Below are positions 1,982-9,761 of a stretch of DNA of 64,000 nucleotides, piece after piece. The position numbers and the translations under genes are program-made. The notes beneath the pieces are model-generated. The model did no database searches. It was not told where the DNA came from and saw nothing but the letters and a program-made list of their open reading frames with translations. Origin of the DNA: Magnetococcales bacterium (GTDB lineage: Bacteria > Pseudomonadota > Magnetococcia > Magnetococcales > UBA8363); the NCBI GenBank assembly GCA_015228975.1, contig JADGCN010000003.1, positions 1,617-65,616 of the forward strand. Reading direction: 5' to 3'. Every line of letters begins with the position of its first letter. Position 1 is the stretch's first letter.

Positions 1982-3343
1982 ATGCGTAAAAAAATCGGTG
2001 TGATCGTTCTGGGGCTGTTGCTGGCTGCGGTGATGATTGCCCAATCGTCCCGGGCAACGCTTCCGACCCAGGTGAATGGCCAGCCGTTGCCATCCCTGGC
2101 CGACATGTTGGAAGCAGTGGTTCCCGCCGTGGTCAACATTACCACGGCGACCCGTATCCGCACTGTGGAGAATCCCCTGCTCCGTGACCCGTTTTTCAGC
2201 CGTTTTTTCAATCTGCCGCAGATGGAACGGGAAAAAACGCAGCAAAGTCTGGGTTCCGGGGTGATCATTGATGCGCAGAAGGGGTTGGTTGTGACCAACA
2301 ACCATGTCATTCAAAAGGCGGATACCATTTCGGTGACCTTGCGTGATGGGCGTACCTTGCAGGGCAAGCGGGTGGGTTTGGACGGCGATACCGATCTGGC
2401 CCTGATTCAAATCCCTGCCGATGGACTCAAGGCGGTGGTCCCTGGTAATTCGGACACGCTACGGGTTGGTGATTTCGTGGTGGCCATCGGCAATCCGTTC
2501 GGTTTGGGGCAAACGGTGACCTCAGGTATCGTCAGTGCCCTGGGTCGCAAAGGATTGGGGATCGATGGGTATGAAGATTTCATTCAGACCGATGCCTCCA
2601 TCAATCCGGGCAATTCGGGGGGGGCGCTGGTCAATTTGCGCGGTGAACTCATCGGTATCAACACGGCTATTCTCGCCCAGGGTGGCGGCAATGTGGGGAT
2701 TGGGTTCGCCATTCCCATTTCCATGGTGCAACAAGTGGTGAAACAGCTTGTCCGCTTTGGCGAGGTGCGACGGGGTTTGATGGGGATCAGTTCCCAGGAT
2801 TTGACCCGGGAATTGGCCAAAGCCCTGGGGGGTAATCCGCGTCAGGGGGCGGTAATCACCCGGGTTGTCCCGAAATCACCAGCGGACAAGGCGGGTTTGC
2901 GACCCGGGGATGTGGTGGTTGAGGTGAATGGCCGTCCTGTGCGGGATTCGGGGAGTTTGCGCAATGTATTGGGCCTTTCGATGATTGGCGAACAGGTTAC
3001 CCTGGAGTTTTTGCGCGATGGCAAACCCAATCGGGTGACCGCCGAGGTTACGGAACCGCGTGCCCGACGCGTGGAAGGCAAACGGATCGATGCGCGTTTT
3101 GTAGGGGCGCTACTGGAAATGGTGGAGGAGGGGGAGCAGGCACAGCCCATCGCCGTGGTCAGCGTCCAGCCCAAAAGTCCCGCTTGGCAGGCCGGGTTGC
3201 GGGAAGGGGATCGCATCCTGGCGGTCAACCGGCAGGTCGTCAACTCCTTTGAAGGGCTGGCGGCAATCGTCAAGCAGAATGATAGCGAGATGCTCCTTAA
3301 TTTACAACGTGGCCAGGAGGGGATTTATATCCTCGTGCATTGA
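1982..3343 (+). CDS. DegP/DegQ (HtrA) family periplasmic serine endoprotease
   Basis: N-terminal hydrophobic signal or anchor. Trypsin-like triad contexts TNNHV, DLALIQ and GNSGGALVN. Two PDZ-like segments at the C-terminus. Confidence 0.9.
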   Translation: MRKKIGVIVLGLLLAAVMIAQSSRATLPTQVNGQPLPSLADMLEAVVPAVVNITTATRIRTVENPLLRDPFFSRFFNLPQMEREKTQQSLGSGVIIDAQKGLVVTNNHVIQKADTISVTLRDGRTLQGKRVGLDGDTDLALIQIPADGLKAVVPGNSDTLRVGDFVVAIGNPFGLGQTVTSGIVSALGRKGLGIDGYEDFIQTDASINPGNSGGALVNLRGELIGINTAILAQGGGNVGIGFAIPISMVQQVVKQLVRFGEVRRGLMGISSQDLTRELAKALGGNPRQGAVITRVVPKSPADKAGLRPGDVVVEVNGRPVRDSGSLRNVLGLSMIGEQVTLEFLRDGKPNRVTAEVTEPRARRVEGKRIDARFVGALLEMVEEGEQAQPIAVVSVQPKSPAWQAGLREGDRILAVNRQVVNSFEGLAAIVKQNDSEMLLNLQRGQEGIYILVH

Positions 3344-3422
3344 CAAGGGGGTGGGGATCCCCTTAACCAGGAGGGGGAGACCGTGTTGTTAAATCAAGGG
3401 GTTCATGGGCGAAAAAAGGTGA

Positions 3423-4505
3423 TTGATCGTGGCGGGTAGTCAAAAAGACAGACATTCATCCCCTGGATTGAAGCGGAAATTGCGAGGTATCGGCGCGTTG
3501 TATTCTTGTGCGACCGTGTTTTTTTGCTATTTCGGTCTGTCCATGGCATGGTCGTTAGCGGCTTTGGCCCCGGAGGATCCCCGTCCCCCCTTGGAACCCG
3601 AACGCTCCTGGGACGCCATTGTGACCAAAAAAGAGAGTTTAATGGTCAAATATATGGATCTGGATCCGTTGGGACTGCACGGCCAGGGGCGCTTGGTGTT
3701 ACACTCGCTGCATCCCCTGGTGAACACCATCTCCTTTGACAAGGTGACGGGCAATCCCGAGTTGTGGCTGAAACGTATGGCGGGATTTTCGGCCTTGGCC
3801 CATTGGTTGGTTACGCGGCAGCAGTTGGGGGAGATCAAACTGGCCGGCCTGGAGGTGTTGATGACCGCCGAAGGGATTGATTTCAAGTTTGATCGGGCCG
3901 ATATCAAGGACGGGTATCTGCTTCAAGGACGTGGGCGCTTTGCGTTTGATGGACGATGGGCTGTACGCTCGGGGGCGTTATGGCTCAGCAGACCGCCGTT
4001 TAAGGATTTGGACAAACCTTTTGCCCGCCCCATGGGTTATGGCACTTTGGATGCTTATGGTGCCAAGGGGCGCTTCAAGGCGGTGATGGATGAGGCGTTT
4101 GCCTTGGATGCCAGCACTGGCCATGTGGAAGCCAATGCGGTTTGGAACGATGCGGTAACCCGGGGCGACATCGACAAGGTGGAGGCGGAATGGGGTGTGG
4201 AAATGACCACATTTCGCGTCAGTGATGCCTTTTTTGAACAGGGCCCCCGGGATTTGGCGCACGAGTTACTGACATATGCCGGTTTGACACCAGCCTGGGG
4301 TATGGCTTTTCCACGCATTACCTTGTCGGGCAGCGTTACCGGACCGAACTATAAGGCCCATGCCTTGCGGTTGTCGTCACCAAGCTTGCAGGTGTGGGGC
4401 ACAGCCCATGGCATCTGGTATCCTTTGCCCGGTTCCATGAACGTGGAAGTGACTGCCAAAAGCCCCGGTCGGGATATGCGCCAATTCGTTTGGCCGGGAA
4501 AATAA
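3423..4505 (+). CDS. Hypothetical membrane-anchored protein
   Basis: 360-aa ORF with one N-terminal hydrophobic helix (GALYSCATVFFCYFGLSMAWSLAALA). I recognise no family motif. The start may be GTG 3429, which sits 6 nt after AGGTGA. Co-oriented with motA. Confidence 0.5.
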   Translation: MIVAGSQKDRHSSPGLKRKLRGIGALYSCATVFFCYFGLSMAWSLAALAPEDPRPPLEPERSWDAIVTKKESLMVKYMDLDPLGLHGQGRLVLHSLHPLVNTISFDKVTGNPELWLKRMAGFSALAHWLVTRQQLGEIKLAGLEVLMTAEGIDFKFDRADIKDGYLLQGRGRFAFDGRWAVRSGALWLSRPPFKDLDKPFARPMGYGTLDAYGAKGRFKAVMDEAFALDASTGHVEANAVWNDAVTRGDIDKVEAEWGVEMTTFRVSDAFFEQGPRDLAHELLTYAGLTPAWGMAFPRITLSGSVTGPNYKAHALRLSSPSLQVWGTAHGIWYPLPGSMNVEVTAKSPGRDMRQFVWPGK

Positions 4506-4554
4506 AGAGGAGAAAAAGAACGGGTCATGGGGATGATTCGTTTGCGAAAAGTAT

Positions 4555-4582
4555 TAAAGGTTTTCCAGTGTTTGCCCGACTT
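4555..4582 (+). promoter_or_regulatory. Possible sigma-28 (FliA)-type promoter upstream of motA
   Basis: TAAAGGTT-N11-GCCCGACT compared with the enteric consensus TAAAGTTT-N11-GCCGATAA. The -35 is good and the -10 is weak. It sits about 87 nt upstream of the motA ATG. This is a by-eye match only. Confidence 0.25.
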
Positions 4583-4668
4583 GATACCCATGTCGGGGAA
4601 TGCTTGCTGTATGCGGTGCAGGACGTTTTCCAAGGGGCCTTTTTGCAACAACATGGGAAAATAATGGC

Positions 4669-5424
4669 ATGGATCTCGCAACAGTCATCGGAATGATTCT
4701 TGCGTTTGCTGCGGTTGTCGGTGGCATTCTGTTGAATAGTGGCCTGAAAGTGTTTTTCAACCTTCCCGGGCTTCTGATCGTGGTTGGGGGGACGGTGGGG
4801 GCGATGCTGATTCGCCACAAAATGGCCGATGTATTGGCTTCGTTCACCTTTTTAATGCGGGCGGTGATCGTCAAGACCCAGGACCCCGCCAAGGTGATCG
4901 GACAATTGATTGAAATGGCGACCATCGCTCGCAAAGATGGCATATTGGGATTGGAAAAGTTCAGATCGGACAATCCTTTTTTGCAGGTGGCCATCAACCA
5001 TTGCGTCGACGGCGCCGATCCGGAATTCCTGGAAAGCGTTTTGACAAAGGAACTGAGTTACATGGCCCAACGCCATGCCCGGGGTATCAGCGTGTGGGAG
5101 GGTGTTGCGGAGATCGCCCCGGCCTTTGGTCTGATGGGAACCTTGGTCGGCCTGGTGCAAATGCTGGCCAGCGCGTCGGATCCGTCGGCGGTGGGGCCGG
5201 GTATGGCCGTGGCGGTTTTGACCATTTTGTACGGCATGTTGATTGCTCATGGGATCGCCATTCCCATCTGTACGAAATTGGCGACCTACAGCAAAGAGGA
5301 ACAGATGGTGCGTCAGGTCATCATCGATGGCATGATCGGCATTCAAAAAGGGGTGAGTCCCCGATTGTTGCATGAGGCGTTGCAAGCCGCCCTGCCGCCG
5401 GCGGAGCGCGGAGCCATGCCGTAA
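4669..5424 (+). CDS. motA: MotA/PomA-type flagellar stator protein
   Basis: The 251-aa form starts at the ATG at 4669 (MDLATVIGMILAF...). It shows the four-TM MotA/ExbB/TolQ pattern with conserved Pro contexts (IAPAFGLMGTLVGL and HGIAIPICTKL). The longer ORF from 4600 has no support. Confidence 0.85.
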   Translation: MDLATVIGMILAFAAVVGGILLNSGLKVFFNLPGLLIVVGGTVGAMLIRHKMADVLASFTFLMRAVIVKTQDPAKVIGQLIEMATIARKDGILGLEKFRSDNPFLQVAINHCVDGADPEFLESVLTKELSYMAQRHARGISVWEGVAEIAPAFGLMGTLVGLVQMLASASDPSAVGPGMAVAVLTILYGMLIAHGIAIPICTKLATYSKEEQMVRQVIIDGMIGIQKGVSPRLLHEALQAALPPAERGAMP

Positions 5425-5478
5425 CGAACCGTGGCGTATTATCGGACGGGAAGATCTTACATGGACAGGTTTTAGTTG

Positions 5479-6273
5479 ATGGCCCAGTGCCCCGCATGCA
5501 AAAAGCCAGTTGTGACGGGATTGAACTCGTTTTCCGGTTTGATGGTCCTGCTGTTGGCTGTCTCTCTTTGGATGCTCTCCTTTGCCCGGTTTGACGGGCC
5601 AAAGTTTGATGAAGCAGCGGGTTCCATTCGCCGCGCTTTGCATGCCCCGGCGCTTTCGGGCAGTTCCGCACCCCTGTCATCCTGTGGCCAGGAGCCAAGT
5701 CTGGCGGAATTCAATCAGGAAATCGTCCTGGTCCATCTCCTGGACCAGATGAACGTGTTGCTTGCCAAACAACTGACCAGTTCGGAAGCGGAGATTGTGG
5801 CGACGGATCGTGGCATCGTCGTCCGTTTGGCAAGCGATTTTTTGTTTCAGCCCGCCAATCTGCAATTTCGCAAGGAATCCCTGCCCGTGTTGCAGGGATT
5901 GGCAACGCTTTTGGTCGGGGTGGAGAATGCCGTGTTCGTCAGTGGTTATACCGATAATGCCCCCCCTCCGGCCGGTTTACCATTTCCATCCAATTGGGGG
6001 TATTCCGCCGGCATGGCGGCGAGTGTGGTACAATTCTTGAGTGAAACCTCCGGGATGGATCCGTCGCGTCTCCAGGCGCTGGGTCTGGGGGAGTTTTCGC
6101 CTCGCCAACCCAACGCTACCGATGCGGGCCGGGCCGCCAATCGCCGGATTGAACTGTTTATTTCGCGCATCAGACAGGCACCGATTGTGGAAAAAGTCGT
6201 GCAACCGCCAAAACCAGCCCAGGATGGGGAACCGAAGGTCCCAACCTTGGAACCAGCGGCGGTGGTTCCCTGA
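5479..6273 (+). CDS. MotB-like protein with OmpA-type C-terminal domain (atypical, no channel Asp)
   Basis: One TM helix (GLMVLLLAVSLWMLSF) aligns with the MotB/PomB plug-TM region. The C-terminal OmpA-like motifs are SGYTDN...SNW...NRRIELFI. It follows motA after 54 nt. Confidence 0.75.
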   Translation: MAQCPACKKPVVTGLNSFSGLMVLLLAVSLWMLSFARFDGPKFDEAAGSIRRALHAPALSGSSAPLSSCGQEPSLAEFNQEIVLVHLLDQMNVLLAKQLTSSEAEIVATDRGIVVRLASDFLFQPANLQFRKESLPVLQGLATLLVGVENAVFVSGYTDNAPPPAGLPFPSNWGYSAGMAASVVQFLSETSGMDPSRLQALGLGEFSPRQPNATDAGRAANRRIELFISRIRQAPIVEKVVQPPKPAQDGEPKVPTLEPAAVVP

Positions 6274-6291
6274 CAACCATGGAGAAGGGTC

Positions 6292-6888
6292 ATGGCAGCC
6301 GTTACACAAAAACCCGGGGATAATCAACAACGCGCCTTTGTACGCGTCGACGACTATTTGCCGTTGTCCTGGCGTCGGGTTGGGGCCGAAGAGTTTGCCG
6401 AGGTCATGGCAACCTACAAAAAGTCGCAAACCTTTCCCGTCGTGCCCGACGACATCCAGACGATTCTGACCAATCTGGAGGTCACCGATAAAATTGTGTT
6501 GTTGGAGCGCTCCGATCCGGTATTGGCGCGTATTCTGGCGCGCATGGATATGAAGCTCAACATGTTGCTGAAGGTGTTTTATCCCGGTACCGAAGCCAGG
6601 CCCATGGTGCCCACTTGGGTGAATCTGAGTGGTGGTGGTGTGGCCTTCAAGGAGGCGGGCCTGGACGCCAAGGTGGATGACATTCTTGAACTCAGGTTGG
6701 CGTTATCCCAGGATTCTTTGGCCTCCATCCAATGTTTTGCCCGTGTGGTGAAAATTTTCCCCCCTGACCAGGGTGGATTGATCAAGGCGGCTTGCCAATT
6801 TGAACCCATCCTCGATGGGGACCGGGAAAAGTTGATCCAGCATATTTTCAAGCGCCAGTCGGAATTGTTGCGGGCCAAACGGAGTTAA
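6292..6888 (+). CDS. PilZ-domain protein (split c-di-GMP motifs)
   Basis: RxxxR (RAFVR, aa 14-18) and D/NxSxxG (NLSGGG, aa 111-116). The RBS GGAGAAGGG lies upstream of the ATG. Confidence 0.75.
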   Translation: MAAVTQKPGDNQQRAFVRVDDYLPLSWRRVGAEEFAEVMATYKKSQTFPVVPDDIQTILTNLEVTDKIVLLERSDPVLARILARMDMKLNMLLKVFYPGTEARPMVPTWVNLSGGGVAFKEAGLDAKVDDILELRLALSQDSLASIQCFARVVKIFPPDQGGLIKAACQFEPILDGDREKLIQHIFKRQSELLRAKRS

Positions 6889-8699
6889 TGGTCACGGTAA
6901 CAACTGGAAGATCTTTCATGGCAGAACATTTTGCAGACAGTGCGCAACCGGAAAATCTTTTATTTTGGTACCGCCGCGTTTCACCAGCGCAATTGGCGGT
7001 GATCCGGGAGTGTCGCACCAAGGGGGTACAGATGCCCGAGGCGCGACCGGGTATGGGGGAAGCGGTCGCGAGCCTTTTGGCCAAGGAGGCGGGGATCGTG
7101 CCATCGACGGCACCCCGGGGCCAACAGGGATTGGCCCGTGCCTCTGTTTTGGAGGCGATGAACCGTAAATTCAATTTATTGTTGGGATTGGTTTATCCGC
7201 CGGAGTCGGTGGTACAGAGTGCCCCGGTGATGTTGGATCCAGAGGGTGCGGGGGTGGTGGCTTGGCTGAAGGATCCCAGCTTTGCTGAAAATGATTGTGT
7301 CGAATTGCGGTTTCTTGCGAGTGCGAAACTGCCCTGGCCGTTTCACAGTTATTGCCGGGTGGCGCGGATGGCGCAGGAGAATTCGCGTCCTGGTGTTCGG
7401 GTGGAATTTCGCTTTGAAACGGTTCACCCGAATGTCCCCGGTCTGGAATCGCCACCTGCCAGAAAATTGCCACTTCCCAAGCGGGACAGAGTTCCAGCCA
7501 AACCTGCTGTTGCCCCCCCCAAGCCTGTTGTTCCACCCCCCTCGCCCCCCCCGGTAGCACCGCCGGTACCAGCGACTGCCAAACCGAGCGGTCCCGTCAC
7601 ATCCGTTCGGGCTTCCAAGCCGGATTTGCCCAAGCCGGTTCCGGTTGTCGCAGAGAAGGGCGAGGATAAATACGAACGCATGTTGCTGGAAGGGATGAAA
7701 ATGTCGCGGGCGAAGATTGGTGATGCGGTCGTCAAGAAGGGGAATGACCCTTTCCTGGCCTCGCAACCCCAGGTGGACAAGCGGCGTGATTTTCGTATCA
7801 ATGATCGCATCCCTTTTATCTGGAGTCATGTCACCGAAGAATCCTTTAAGGAGGCCATGGCGACCTTTCACAAGGATAAGGCGTTCACTCTGCGAACCAT
7901 TATCCGCAATCAGCAAAAAATATTGACCGACTTGGCCAATGTTCAGGAGGTATTGAAACGCAAGCGCTCCAAGGCCAGAAAACATGTGGATTGGCACCGC
8001 GACCGTCTCTCCTGGTTGTTTTTGCGGGCTGCTTCGGAAAACGAGGAGACCTATTATCAACACATGACGGAATTGTTTATGGTCATAGCGGCTGATTTGG
8101 CCAAGCAGGGGGGTGGGGCGATCAGTCAGTGGAGCATGCAGGCGTTGTCGCTGCTGCGCAATATGATGGAGCTGAAACAGACACGCGATCAGTCCAATCC
8201 CATCACCGAGGCCAACGCGGTCAAAAAGGCGGAATCGGGATTGGCGGATGTGGAACGGCAGTTGCCCAAGGTGTTGGCCAAGGTGGAGGAGGGGGATCCG
8301 GCGTTGGCTGCCAAAATGGCCATGTACAAAGAGGCGATTGGTGCCATCGATTTAACCCTCCATGATCGACCGGTTGGCAAGACGGCTGATGGCAAGGATC
8401 TCTATACGGTGAATATCAGTGCTACGGGACTGGCCTTTCGTACGCGCAGATTGTGGGTGAAAAAGGGTGACTTGTTGGAAATGCGGGTGTTTTTGAGCAG
8501 CGATGGCAAAAAATTTGAACCGGTCAATACCTATGGTCGGGTGGTGTTCGTCCATGGGCCGGTGGACAATAAACTCAAGGTGGCCACCTTTATCGATCCC
8601 AAGCCTGCCTTGTACGAACAAAAAATTTACCTGCACATTGCCCGTCGGCAACGGGAAATGCTTTCGGAGCGGGCCTCCGTTCGGGATGACGATTTTTAA
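6888..8699 (+). CDS. Large PilZ-family protein: degenerate N-terminal PilZ-like half, Pro-rich linker, C-terminal PilZ with long insertion
   Basis: RRDFR (aa 299-303) and NISATG (aa 509-514). The N-terminal 180 aa are paralogous to the preceding PilZ protein but lack both motifs. A P/A/V/K-rich linker spans aa 186-255. The start overlaps the upstream stop (TAATG). Confidence 0.7.
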   Translation: MVTVTTGRSFMAEHFADSAQPENLLFWYRRVSPAQLAVIRECRTKGVQMPEARPGMGEAVASLLAKEAGIVPSTAPRGQQGLARASVLEAMNRKFNLLLGLVYPPESVVQSAPVMLDPEGAGVVAWLKDPSFAENDCVELRFLASAKLPWPFHSYCRVARMAQENSRPGVRVEFRFETVHPNVPGLESPPARKLPLPKRDRVPAKPAVAPPKPVVPPPSPPPVAPPVPATAKPSGPVTSVRASKPDLPKPVPVVAEKGEDKYERMLLEGMKMSRAKIGDAVVKKGNDPFLASQPQVDKRRDFRINDRIPFIWSHVTEESFKEAMATFHKDKAFTLRTIIRNQQKILTDLANVQEVLKRKRSKARKHVDWHRDRLSWLFLRAASENEETYYQHMTELFMVIAADLAKQGGGAISQWSMQALSLLRNMMELKQTRDQSNPITEANAVKKAESGLADVERQLPKVLAKVEEGDPALAAKMAMYKEAIGAIDLTLHDRPVGKTADGKDLYTVNISATGLAFRTRRLWVKKGDLLEMRVFLSSDGKKFEPVNTYGRVVFVHGPVDNKLKVATFIDPKPALYEQKIYLHIARRQREMLSERASVRDDDF

Positions 8700-8717
8700 A
8701 AGCTCGGAAACCTACTC

Positions 8718-9761
8718 ATGAACGTAAGCATCGGCATGAACCTGCAGTCGGGTGCCTGGGGGGGGGGCAACCAGTTCGGGCGGGCCTTGAGCCAGTATTT
8801 ACTGGATCATGGCCATCGGGTGAGCCACGATTTGTCGGCGCGGGATCTGGATATCATCCTCTTGGCGGAACCGGATGCCCGGTTAAAAATTTCCGCCTAT
8901 GACCATCGGGCCATTCTTCGCTATTTGCTGCAAAAAAACAAGAACGCCATCGTCGTCCATCGCATCAATAACACGAGCGAGGCCAGGGACGATAACAAGA
9001 AAAAATTCAACAAATTCAGAATATACGCCAACCAGATCGCCGACCATACCATTTTTGTCAGCCAATGGGTGAAGGAACGCTATGAAGAGGCGGGCTTTGC
9101 CGCGAAACGTCCCGCAAGCGTCATTTTGAATGGCAGCGACAGTCGGTTATGGTCTCCCGGCCCGGCCAAAAAAACGCCGGGAAAGCGTTTCAAACTGGTG
9201 ACGCACCATTGGAGCAACCATTGGAACAAAGGGTTTGATGTCTATCACAAGCTGGATCAACTGCTGGCCCATCCCAGGTGGGCTTCCCGTCTGACAATGA
9301 CCTACATTGGCCGGGTGCCCAGCGATTTTCATTTTGTAGAGGTCCGACATGTGCAACCGTTGTCGGGGGTGGAATTGGCGGAAGAGTTGCGGCGACACGA
9401 TGCCTATATCACCGCATCCCGTTTTGAATCGGGGGGGCATCACAATTTGGAAGCGGGGCTGTGCGGCTTGCCATTGCTCTACTTGAACAGCGGTGCCATG
9501 GCGGAGTATTGTCAGGGTTTTGGGATTGAATACACCGTGGAAACCTTGGAGGAAAAATTGGAGGAGATGCTGGCCACCTGGCCCGATTGGGTGGAGCGCA
9601 TGGCCGATTTTCCCCATACGGCGGATGCCATGTGCCAACGATATCAGGATTTGTTCATGGAGTTGGTTGCCAATCGTGATGATGTTTTGGCCCGTCGCCG
9701 CTGGTTCAAGCGCATCCCCTGGATGGTGTCCGCCATGATGAAATCCGGCAGGCCAACCTGA
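8718..9761 (+). CDS. GT-B fold glycosyltransferase (GT4-like)
   Basis: N-terminal GGGNQF nucleotide-sugar GT-B signature. The C-terminal ESGGHHNLEAGLCGLPLL matches the E-x7-E region of retaining GT4-type enzymes. Confidence 0.7.
   Translation: MNVSIGMNLQSGAWGGGNQFGRALSQYLLDHGHRVSHDLSARDLDIILLAEPDARLKISAYDHRAILRYLLQKNKNAIVVHRINNTSEARDDNKKKFNKFRIYANQIADHTIFVSQWVKERYEEAGFAAKRPASVILNGSDSRLWSPGPAKKTPGKRFKLVTHHWSNHWNKGFDVYHKLDQLLAHPRWASRLTMTYIGRVPSDFHFVEVRHVQPLSGVELAEELRRHDAYITASRFESGGHHNLEAGLCGLPLLYLNSGAMAEYCQGFGIEYTVETLEEKLEEMLATWPDWVERMADFPHTADAMCQRYQDLFMELVANRDDVLARRRWFKRIPWMVSAMMKSGRPT

Follow-up and report, generated by a model that had tools for sequence, protein, structure and literature searches.

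A stretch of 64,000 nucleotides from a Magnetococcales bacterium (contig JADGCN010000003.1; hereafter the window) raises the question of what has happened to a PilZ domain whose two cyclic di-GMP (c-di-GMP) motifs, RxxxR and D/NxSxxG, lie far apart, and of what two such proteins do beside a pair of stator genes. Four co-directional genes span 4.6-8.7 kb of the window: a PomA-like motA, a PomB-like motB and two PilZ genes, pilZ-1 and pilZ-2. The motifs are separated by 92 residues in PilZ-1 (RAFVR and NLSGGG) and by 205 residues in PilZ-2 (RRDFR and NISATG), at the residues given in an original prediction that had read the proteins as a PilZ variant with a large inserted module. No other D/NxSxxG occurs in either protein. 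We attribute the spacing to the helical insert between strands β1 and β2 that defines the tetramer-forming PilZ (tPilZ) class. PilZ-1 and both halves of PilZ-2 are, in our judgement, probably tPilZ domains that serve as c-di-GMP-responsive stator partners by the mechanism proposed below.

The c-di-GMP motifs are conserved and frame a split PilZ domain

In Pfam and NCBIfam scans the two PilZ proteins gave nothing beyond partial matches to the Pfam PilZ profile (PF07238), whose alignment to each of them starts late, at profile position 21 or 26; other above-threshold PilZ matches in this genome begin at profile positions 1-6. The late start is consistent with a split PilZ domain, and neither protein has the uninterrupted domain with motifs ~20-30 residues apart of canonical PF07238 proteins. 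The two proteins share a conserved stretch after RxxxR, as the original prediction had noted (BLASTP, 32% over 73 aa, E 1e-8).

We compared the motif columns among orthologues of PilZ-1 (n=37, identity to the window protein down to ~45%) and PilZ-2 (n=24, identity down to ~21%). In PilZ-1, R18, N111 and G116 are each present in 37/37 sequences, R14 in 36/37 and S113 in 35/37; in PilZ-2, R299, R303, N509, S511 and G514 are each present in 24/24. Judged by this conservation, the motif matches in PilZ-1 and PilZ-2 are not due to chance.

The same counts bear on an alternative in which the PilZ proteins form a c-di-GMP-independent structural scaffold, a permanent part of the stator ring like FlgX of Campylobacter jejuni, with the motif residues kept for structural reasons. 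A structural component would suit the several genomes in which this is the sole stator operon (see below), and the N-terminal domain of PilZ-2 lacks both motifs. However, the Arg pair and the N, S and G residues stay invariant or nearly so at the low identities given above, while non-binding lineages of tPilZ readily lose the motifs (10.1101/814665). This genome also makes heavy use of c-di-GMP signalling, with 33 GGDEF matches and 17 PilZ matches. We consider a purely structural role unlikely.

Fold and profile comparisons place PilZ-1 in the tPilZ class

In its founding description (PMC3131395) and in 10.1101/814665, tPilZ denotes a tetramer-forming PilZ domain defined by a two-helix insert of ~60 aa between β1 and β2. 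The founder, XCC6012 of Xanthomonas campestris (3PH1/3RQA, PF16823), has 57 extra residues (α2, α3) after β1, and its α3 makes a four-helix coiled coil with a DAKLD lock (PMC3131395). This interlock motif has been generalised to [DENH]x[KR]h[DEN] (10.1101/814665). The corresponding features of PilZ-1 in the window are:

6292-6888, + strand: PilZ-1, a stand-alone tPilZ-type protein of 198 aa by AlphaFold2 model, Foldseek and hhalign
6331-6345, + strand: RxxxR motif RAFVR, aa 14-18, directly N-terminal of predicted β1 (aa 19-30)
6382-6606, + strand: helical insert between β1 and β2, aa 31-105, from DSSP of the model and sequence
6547-6561, + strand: interlock motif DMKLN, aa 86-90, fitting [DENH]x[KR]h[DEN]
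6622-6639, + strand: [D/N]hSxxG motif NLSGGG, aa 111-116, in the β2-β3 turn
6814-6882, + strand: C-terminal basic helix α4, aa 175-197, DREKLIQHIFKRQSELLRAKR, highly conserved; candidate MotA-contact surface by analogy with FlgX

We built an AlphaFold2 model of PilZ-1 on the 37-sequence alignment, with a mean predicted local distance difference test (pLDDT) score of 78. The model has a disordered N-terminus that includes R14, followed by β1 (residues 19-30), helices at 32-45, 55-61, 65-74 and 76-96, five strands β2-β6 at 106-173, and a long helix at 175-197. RxxxR lies just ahead of the confidently predicted β1, and NLSGGG falls within the β2-β3 turn; canonical PilZ domains likewise place RxxxR before β1 and the second motif in the β2-β3 turn (PMC3131395). 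With both motifs at their canonical positions in the model, the PilZ-1 domain is intact, with an interruption between β1 and β2. RxxxR thus belongs to the PilZ domain rather than being a fortuitous match, a doubt that the original prediction had raised against itself. In the models of both proteins, β1 leads into a helical region that separates RxxxR from the remaining strands.

Foldseek searches with the PilZ-1 model returned seven chains of XCC6012 (3RQA/3PH1) as the top PDB matches, with E-values of 1e-6 to 8e-6 over 184-202 aligned columns, and MotI as the next best. We also compared the PilZ-1 family by hhalign with 13 tPilZ-like proteins, all single-copy proteins of ~200 aa from other Pseudomonadota, 3 of which pass or reach the Pfam tPilZ model PF16823. 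The two profiles align over 188 columns including the insert (99.8%, E 1.6e-28), and MDMKLN of PilZ-1 lands on LDAKLN. Within the interlock motif, D86, K88 and N90 are each conserved in 37/37 orthologues, and the last insert helix (aa 76-96) carries L78, L82, M85, L89, L92 and F96 at a spacing of 4-3-4-3-4. These sequence signatures support tetramer formation by PilZ-1. An exhaustive profile search gave 5301 cluster representatives (clustering at 50% identity), of which most are ~200 aa long and match over their full length, consistent with the >3000 tPilZ proteins on record in the literature.

Several results weigh against this assignment. The Pfam tPilZ model PF16823 gave no match to these proteins (E ≤1) and none genome-wide (E ≤10), the template modelling scores (TM-scores) of the PilZ-1 model against XCC6012 are only ~0.5, and part of the PilZ-1 insert is modelled at a pLDDT of 58-66. 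A PDB sequence-profile search matched the barrels of MotI (best, E 1.7e-6) and Alg44 and did not match XCC6012, so the link to tPilZ was reached via fold search and profile-profile comparison. A PilZ-1 homologue from Desulfobacterales, not stator-linked, scores 14.3 bits against PF16823. Overall, sequence signatures and the model make PilZ-1 a member of the known tPilZ class rather than an undescribed PilZ variant.

PilZ-2 fuses two tPilZ-type domains with complementary losses

The AlphaFold2 model of PilZ-2 (pLDDT 79 overall) shows the tPilZ topology twice, in domains joined by a long linker. Its features in the window are:

6888-8699, + strand: PilZ-2, 603 aa, two tPilZ-type domains and a disordered linker
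6951-7415, + strand: N-terminal degenerate tPilZ domain, aa 22-176, from hhalign, model and column counts
7416-7781, + strand: Pro/Ala/Lys-rich linker, aa 177-298, pLDDT <50 for most of its length, variable in the orthologue alignment
7782-8696, + strand: C-terminal tPilZ-type domain, aa 299-603, pLDDT >90, supported by hhalign
7782-7796, + strand: RRDFR, aa 299-303
7833-8396, + strand: seven-helix insert of the C-terminal domain, aa 316-503, from model and column counts
8412-8429, + strand: NISATG, aa 509-514

In the model, the N-terminal domain (residues 22-176) is a barrel that contains a helical insert and lacks the C-terminal helix. This domain aligns with PilZ-1 by hhalign at 99.7% (E 8.6e-27), and column counts confirm that it has lost both RxxxR and D/NxSxxG; it was rightly recognised at the outset as a paralogous half without either motif. 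Its interlock lysine is kept (NRKFN, K94 in 24/24). The C-terminal domain aligns with PilZ-1 end to end over 185 columns at 99.8%, with one gap of ~115 aa inside the insert. In the model it comprises β1 at 304-315, β2 at 504-510, strands β2-β6 over 504-568 and a helix at 574-602, and its insert forms helices at 317-330, 337-358, 363-379, 384-406, 411-435, 442-469 and 471-485. Here both ligand motifs are kept in all 24 orthologues, and the interlock motif is not conserved. The linker is of low confidence or disordered in the model and varies in length and sequence among orthologues, except for one short conserved helix (aa 260-273, KYxxxL). A Pro/Ala-rich linker had been proposed correctly, but at about aa 177-299 it is longer than the ~70 aa first estimated.

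Both PilZ-1 and the PilZ-2 C-terminal domain have the six-stranded barrel with a C-terminal helix, and all three domains have the β1-β2 helical insert, each with more than two helices in the models. The insert is ~75 aa long both in PilZ-1 and in the N-terminal half of PilZ-2, and ~190 aa long in the C-terminal half. Foldseek with the whole 603-aa PilZ-2 model returned weak, piecewise PilZ matches, including 3PH1/3RQA at probability 1.00. In this search nothing convincing aligned with the seven-helix insert; matches to BAR domains and designed helical repeats were at chance level.

According to published descriptions, a tPilZ domain is hardly ever part of a fusion and occurs once per genome (10.1101/814665; PMC11725899). 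This locus breaks both generalisations, with three tPilZ-type domains, two of them fused in PilZ-2. Among 401 sampled Pseudomonadota genomes, those with multiple tPilZ matches are Magnetococcales only, save for one with two separate loci; all other sampled genomes outside Magnetococcales hold one match each. PilZ-2 is a new element: its two fused tPilZ domains have complementary losses, and one insert has grown to roughly three times the usual length. Of the unusual module originally proposed, the 205-residue spacing and the fused degenerate domain of PilZ-2 are indeed unusual for the class, while PilZ-1 is a new member of it.

Two genomes each contain an extra frame of ~545-568 aa with two partial tPilZ-profile matches (G006:C1:98593-99348, minus strand; G014:C21:535959-536759). 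These may be further PilZ-2-like paralogues that are not linked to a stator.

The inserts are conserved and helical, and the original prediction had suggested them as the surface that touches the MotA/MotB-like pair. On that reading, the proteins would be a PilZ variant not described before, in which the inserted helices themselves touch MotA/MotB. An AlphaFold3 model of FlgX did place α2/α3 inside the MotA pentamer (PMC11725899), and the ~190-aa insert in the C-terminal half of PilZ-2, being without the interlock motif, needs some other role. Nevertheless, the position of the insert, the interlock motif and full-length homology put PilZ-1 in the tPilZ class, whose defining feature the insert is, so the claim of a new variant does not hold. 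The insert helices of XCC6012 form the tetramer core (PMC3131395), and mutagenesis and cryo-electron tomography of FlgX gave no support to insertion of α2 in MotA and favoured α4 (PMC11725899). We find this alternative very unlikely. By analogy with these two proteins, the insert more likely serves to build the oligomer than to touch MotA, although the enlarged insert of the PilZ-2 C-terminal domain may still contribute a MotA-contact surface.

The tPilZ genes belong to a conserved and selected stator locus

The two genes upstream of pilZ-1 are:

4669-5424, + strand: motA/PomA-like stator A subunit; likely start at an internal ATG, the listed open reading frame (ORF) running from 4600
5476-6273, + strand: motB/PomB-like stator B subunit, whose peptidoglycan-binding domain is of the OmpA type (Pfam OmpA, 2e-9)

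MotA matches Pfam MotA_ExbB (4e-25) and scores 249 bits against the NCBIfam PomA model, under its 341-bit cut-off, with the alignment beginning at residue 24. MotB scores under the cut-offs of the NCBIfam MotD, MotB and MotS models. The pilZ-1 start lies 19 nt past motB and its ATG is preceded by a Shine-Dalgarno sequence, GGAGAAGG; the pilZ-2 ATG (6888) overlaps the pilZ-1 stop as TAATG, with GGAG upstream. Translation of pilZ-2 may alternatively begin at M11 (ATG 6918, 'MAE...'), a residue nearly invariant among orthologues. A promoter and terminator scan of 3300-9000 found sites no more numerous than in shuffled sequence, so the operon structure is drawn from spacing and gene order only.

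The closest public sequences to the locus are Magnetococcales metagenome-assembled genomes (MAGs), and the locus of isolate HA3dbin1 encodes an identical PilZ-1. Cultured relatives include Magnetococcus, Magnetofaba and MO-1, which have motors of unusual architecture. Among papers that name both Magnetococcus and PilZ, we found no description of this locus.

The order motA-motB-pilZ1-pilZ2 recurs in 26/33 Magnetococcales loci, and most of the remaining loci end at contig edges. Two loci (L038, L039) instead carry pilZ1 upstream of motA (pilZ1-motA-motB) and no PilZ-2, and one (L026) has pilZ1-pilZ2 without motAB. The gene order strongly supports the proposed link of the PilZ proteins to the MotA/MotB-like pair; the part of that proposal that does not fare well is the insert as the contact surface, as discussed above. 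A motAB pair followed by a tPilZ gene is also found in Desulfobulbia, in a Thermodesulfobacteriota genome, in one gammaproteobacterial MAG and in two further Pseudomonadota genomes.

We searched 56 Magnetococcales genomes with a MotA profile. In 11 of the 56 the tPilZ-linked motA is the only MotA-type gene, so in these genomes the operon must encode the flagellar stator; 8 of the 11 are ≥93% complete, and one is a complete single contig of 4,719,581 bp. For pairs with unsaturated synonymous divergence, the ratio of nonsynonymous to synonymous substitution rates (dN/dS) is 0.05-0.2 for pilZ1 and 0.1-0.3 for pilZ2, and lies between 0.03 and 0.3 across all four genes. motA, motB, pilZ1 and pilZ2 are thus under purifying selection, and with dN/dS well under 1 we rejected the idea of a decaying locus.

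Stator linkage is not a general property of tPilZ genes. Only 2/20 sampled tPilZ loci in other Pseudomonadota lie beside motAB, which counts against a stator role; with the other 18/20 unlinked, we rejected the proposition that all tPilZ genes are stator-linked.

Variants of the locus were seen elsewhere in the order. In one genus (L026; G002 and G074, whose loci are L063 and L066), pilZ1-pilZ2 contigs lack motAB and MotA genes lie elsewhere, so the pilZ-motAB linkage has been broken at least once. Three loci (L017, 2491-4053; L098 in G014; L109 in G030) read motA-motB-motB'-pilZ1-pilZ2, and both tandem motB genes encode the Asp. In the lineage of L038 and L039 together with genus g8 (for example L156, L138 and L134), pilZ1 precedes motA, PilZ-2 is absent and MotB is highly diverged or Asp-less.

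The linked MotB has repeatedly lost its channel aspartate

The window MotB, whose transmembrane helix lies at about nt 5521-5580, reads FSGLMVLLL where PomB-type proteins have F[AG]D[LM]M, so that Gly replaces the channel Asp. Without this residue the partner may not be a working stator, a point that tells against the stator-partner interpretation in this genome. A tPilZ-linked MotB without the Asp (G, S, N, A or T in its place) occurs in ~26 of the 56 Magnetococcales genomes. With the exception of a single MAG, 76% complete, each of them holds at least one further stator pair that bears the Asp, and all 11 single-stator genomes keep the MotB Asp. Four genomes retain it despite a second MotA-type gene. 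On a MotA tree, the Asp must have been lost independently at least two or three times. These counts come from related, non-independent genomes and describe a pattern rather than provide a test.

The partner proteins otherwise remain constrained. MotA R88, K89, E96, P151 and P199 are kept across tPilZ-linked copies. For MotB, dN/dS is 0.14-0.28 in Asp-less lineages (unsaturated pairs) versus 0.06-0.08 in Asp-retaining pairs, so constraint on MotB is relaxed yet still purifying in Asp-less lineages. This pattern suggests that once another stator provides torque, the unit with its PilZ proteins is retained to do something independent of ion flow, such as regulation or braking. With the ion-binding Asp of its MotB lost, the complex of this genome is less likely to generate torque than to act as a stator-like unit in regulation or braking.

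The genome of the window encodes a second stator pair, pomB-pomA, on contig C3 (L006: 424-1179 and 1213-1959), whose MotB bears the Asp (SWADMATLL). The 735-nt motA type of this second pair is present in most genomes whose tPilZ-linked MotB has lost the Asp. A third stator type, with a LLTFGDLMSLLLT MotB, occurs in several Magnetococcales genomes.

A Gly in place of the channel Asp, together with an Asp-bearing PomB-PomA pair on another contig, could also mean that the module is non-flagellar here: the MotAB-like pair without the Asp, along with the PilZ proteins, would act in some other process of the envelope, or would be decaying. Genes for a glycosyltransferase and a polysaccharide deacetylase lie downstream of pilZ-2 on the same strand, and their control would be one example of such an envelope role. 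However, these neighbours recur only in the near-identical relative L008, for which reason we rejected a joint role with them; the MotA of the window keeps its rotor-facing R88/K89/E96 and the conserved prolines; and dN/dS well under 1 for all four genes in Asp-less lineages shows that they are not decaying. A non-flagellar module has little probability in our view.

Upstream of motA, an ORF of 360 aa (3423-4505) has no Pfam or NCBIfam match. Among the compared loci it recurs in L008 only.

A proposed mechanism for c-di-GMP input to the stator

We propose that PilZ-1 oligomerises through its last insert helix as XCC6012 does, by means of the heptad-spaced hydrophobic residues and the invariant D-x-K-h-N. 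A tPilZ domain with intact motifs is expected to bind c-di-GMP; from motif conservation we infer that PilZ-1 would do so, using its N-terminal RxxxR arm and the β2-β3 turn. No other nearly invariant stretch of PilZ-1 is as long as its C-terminal helix (DRExLIQHIFKRQxExLR). The conserved operon linkage and this basic helix point to association of the PilZ proteins with MotA, and PilZ-1 may dock through the helix under the MotA pentamer in a FlgX-like manner. Docking would then couple c-di-GMP to the engagement or activity of the stator.

PilZ-2 would add two further functions. We propose its N-terminal domain as an assembly module, possibly co-assembling with PilZ-1, because it has kept the interlock lysine and lost the ligand motifs. 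The C-terminal domain, which has kept the ligand motifs and lost the interlock, would be a second c-di-GMP sensor; the seven-helix insert would give it a larger output surface, and the linker would tether it flexibly. The complementary losses in the two domains would thereby separate assembly from ligand sensing in a natural protein.

A more speculative extension, which we think rather improbable as a whole, joins this mechanism to the history of the stator. In magnetotactic cocci, an ancestral flagellar stator would have carried the three-domain tPilZ assembly, with PilZ-1 and the ligand-blind PilZ-2 N-terminal domain co-assembling under MotA and tethering a second sensor with a seven-helix output module. 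Lineages that gained extra stators would then have repeatedly lost the MotB channel Asp, leaving the PilZ-bound stator as a dominant-negative, c-di-GMP-gated brake that occupies rotor sites and yields no torque.

Comparison with known systems

PilZ-1 resembles XCC6012 in its barrel, its β1-β2 helical insert, its amphipathic basic C-terminal helix and the D-x-K-h-[DN] interlock in the last insert helix. It differs in the length of the insert (~75 aa versus 57) and in being missed by the Pfam tPilZ model. The consulted passages on XCC6012 mention no motAB linkage. PA2989 of Pseudomonas aeruginosa and Lpg1926 of Legionella are tPilZ proteins in which RxxxR is retained and the second motif is complete or nearly so; PA2989 is reported to bind c-di-GMP (10.1101/814665). 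Proteins of their description (RREYYR...VSLSEGG) are within our hhalign set. Both are stand-alone and single-copy, and the sampled loci of their type do not lie beside motAB.

Other PilZ proteins act on stators by different architectures. YcgR, MotI (DgrA, 5VX6) and FlgZ are c-di-GMP-dependent and brake or clutch MotA or MotC, and the MotI barrel is the best sequence-profile and second-best structural PDB match to PilZ-1. These proteins pair a PilZN-type domain with a canonical PilZ domain and carry RxxxR in the interdomain linker, with no in-barrel insert and no tetramer helices; a Pfam scan found no PilZN, YcgR_2 or similar match in either protein of the window. Closer in gene arrangement is MotL of Shewanella putrefaciens, a stand-alone c-di-GMP-binding PilZ protein whose gene directly follows motA-motB and which tunes the motor of the flagellar system served by that stator (PMC8203827). 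MotL is a 144-aa canonical PilZ without a helical insert, and no second, fused PilZ gene accompanies it.

The nearest functional parallel is FlgX, a stator-tied tPilZ protein whose basic C-terminal helix matters for function; its dimers or tetramers sit under each MotA pentamer, and mutagenesis implicates α4, not α2, in the MotA contact (PMC11725899). Unlike PilZ-1, FlgX has neither the c-di-GMP motifs nor the interlock motif, which is thus not obligatory (PMC11725899). flgX lies between ubiA and flgW rather than in a motAB operon, and encodes a single domain that is the sole PilZ of its genome; we detected no sequence similarity between FlgX and the PilZ proteins of the window. tPilZ is a large family of thousands of proteins and is poorly understood. 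FlgX, the only mechanistic example, is a stator scaffold blind to the ligand, and the authors of the FlgX study raise the question of whether tPilZ proteins join the 5:2 stator in other phyla (PMC11725899). The stator operon of a whole bacterial order, Magnetococcales, with tPilZ genes that keep the ligand motifs, predicts a direct route from c-di-GMP to the stator through a tetrameric PilZ protein.

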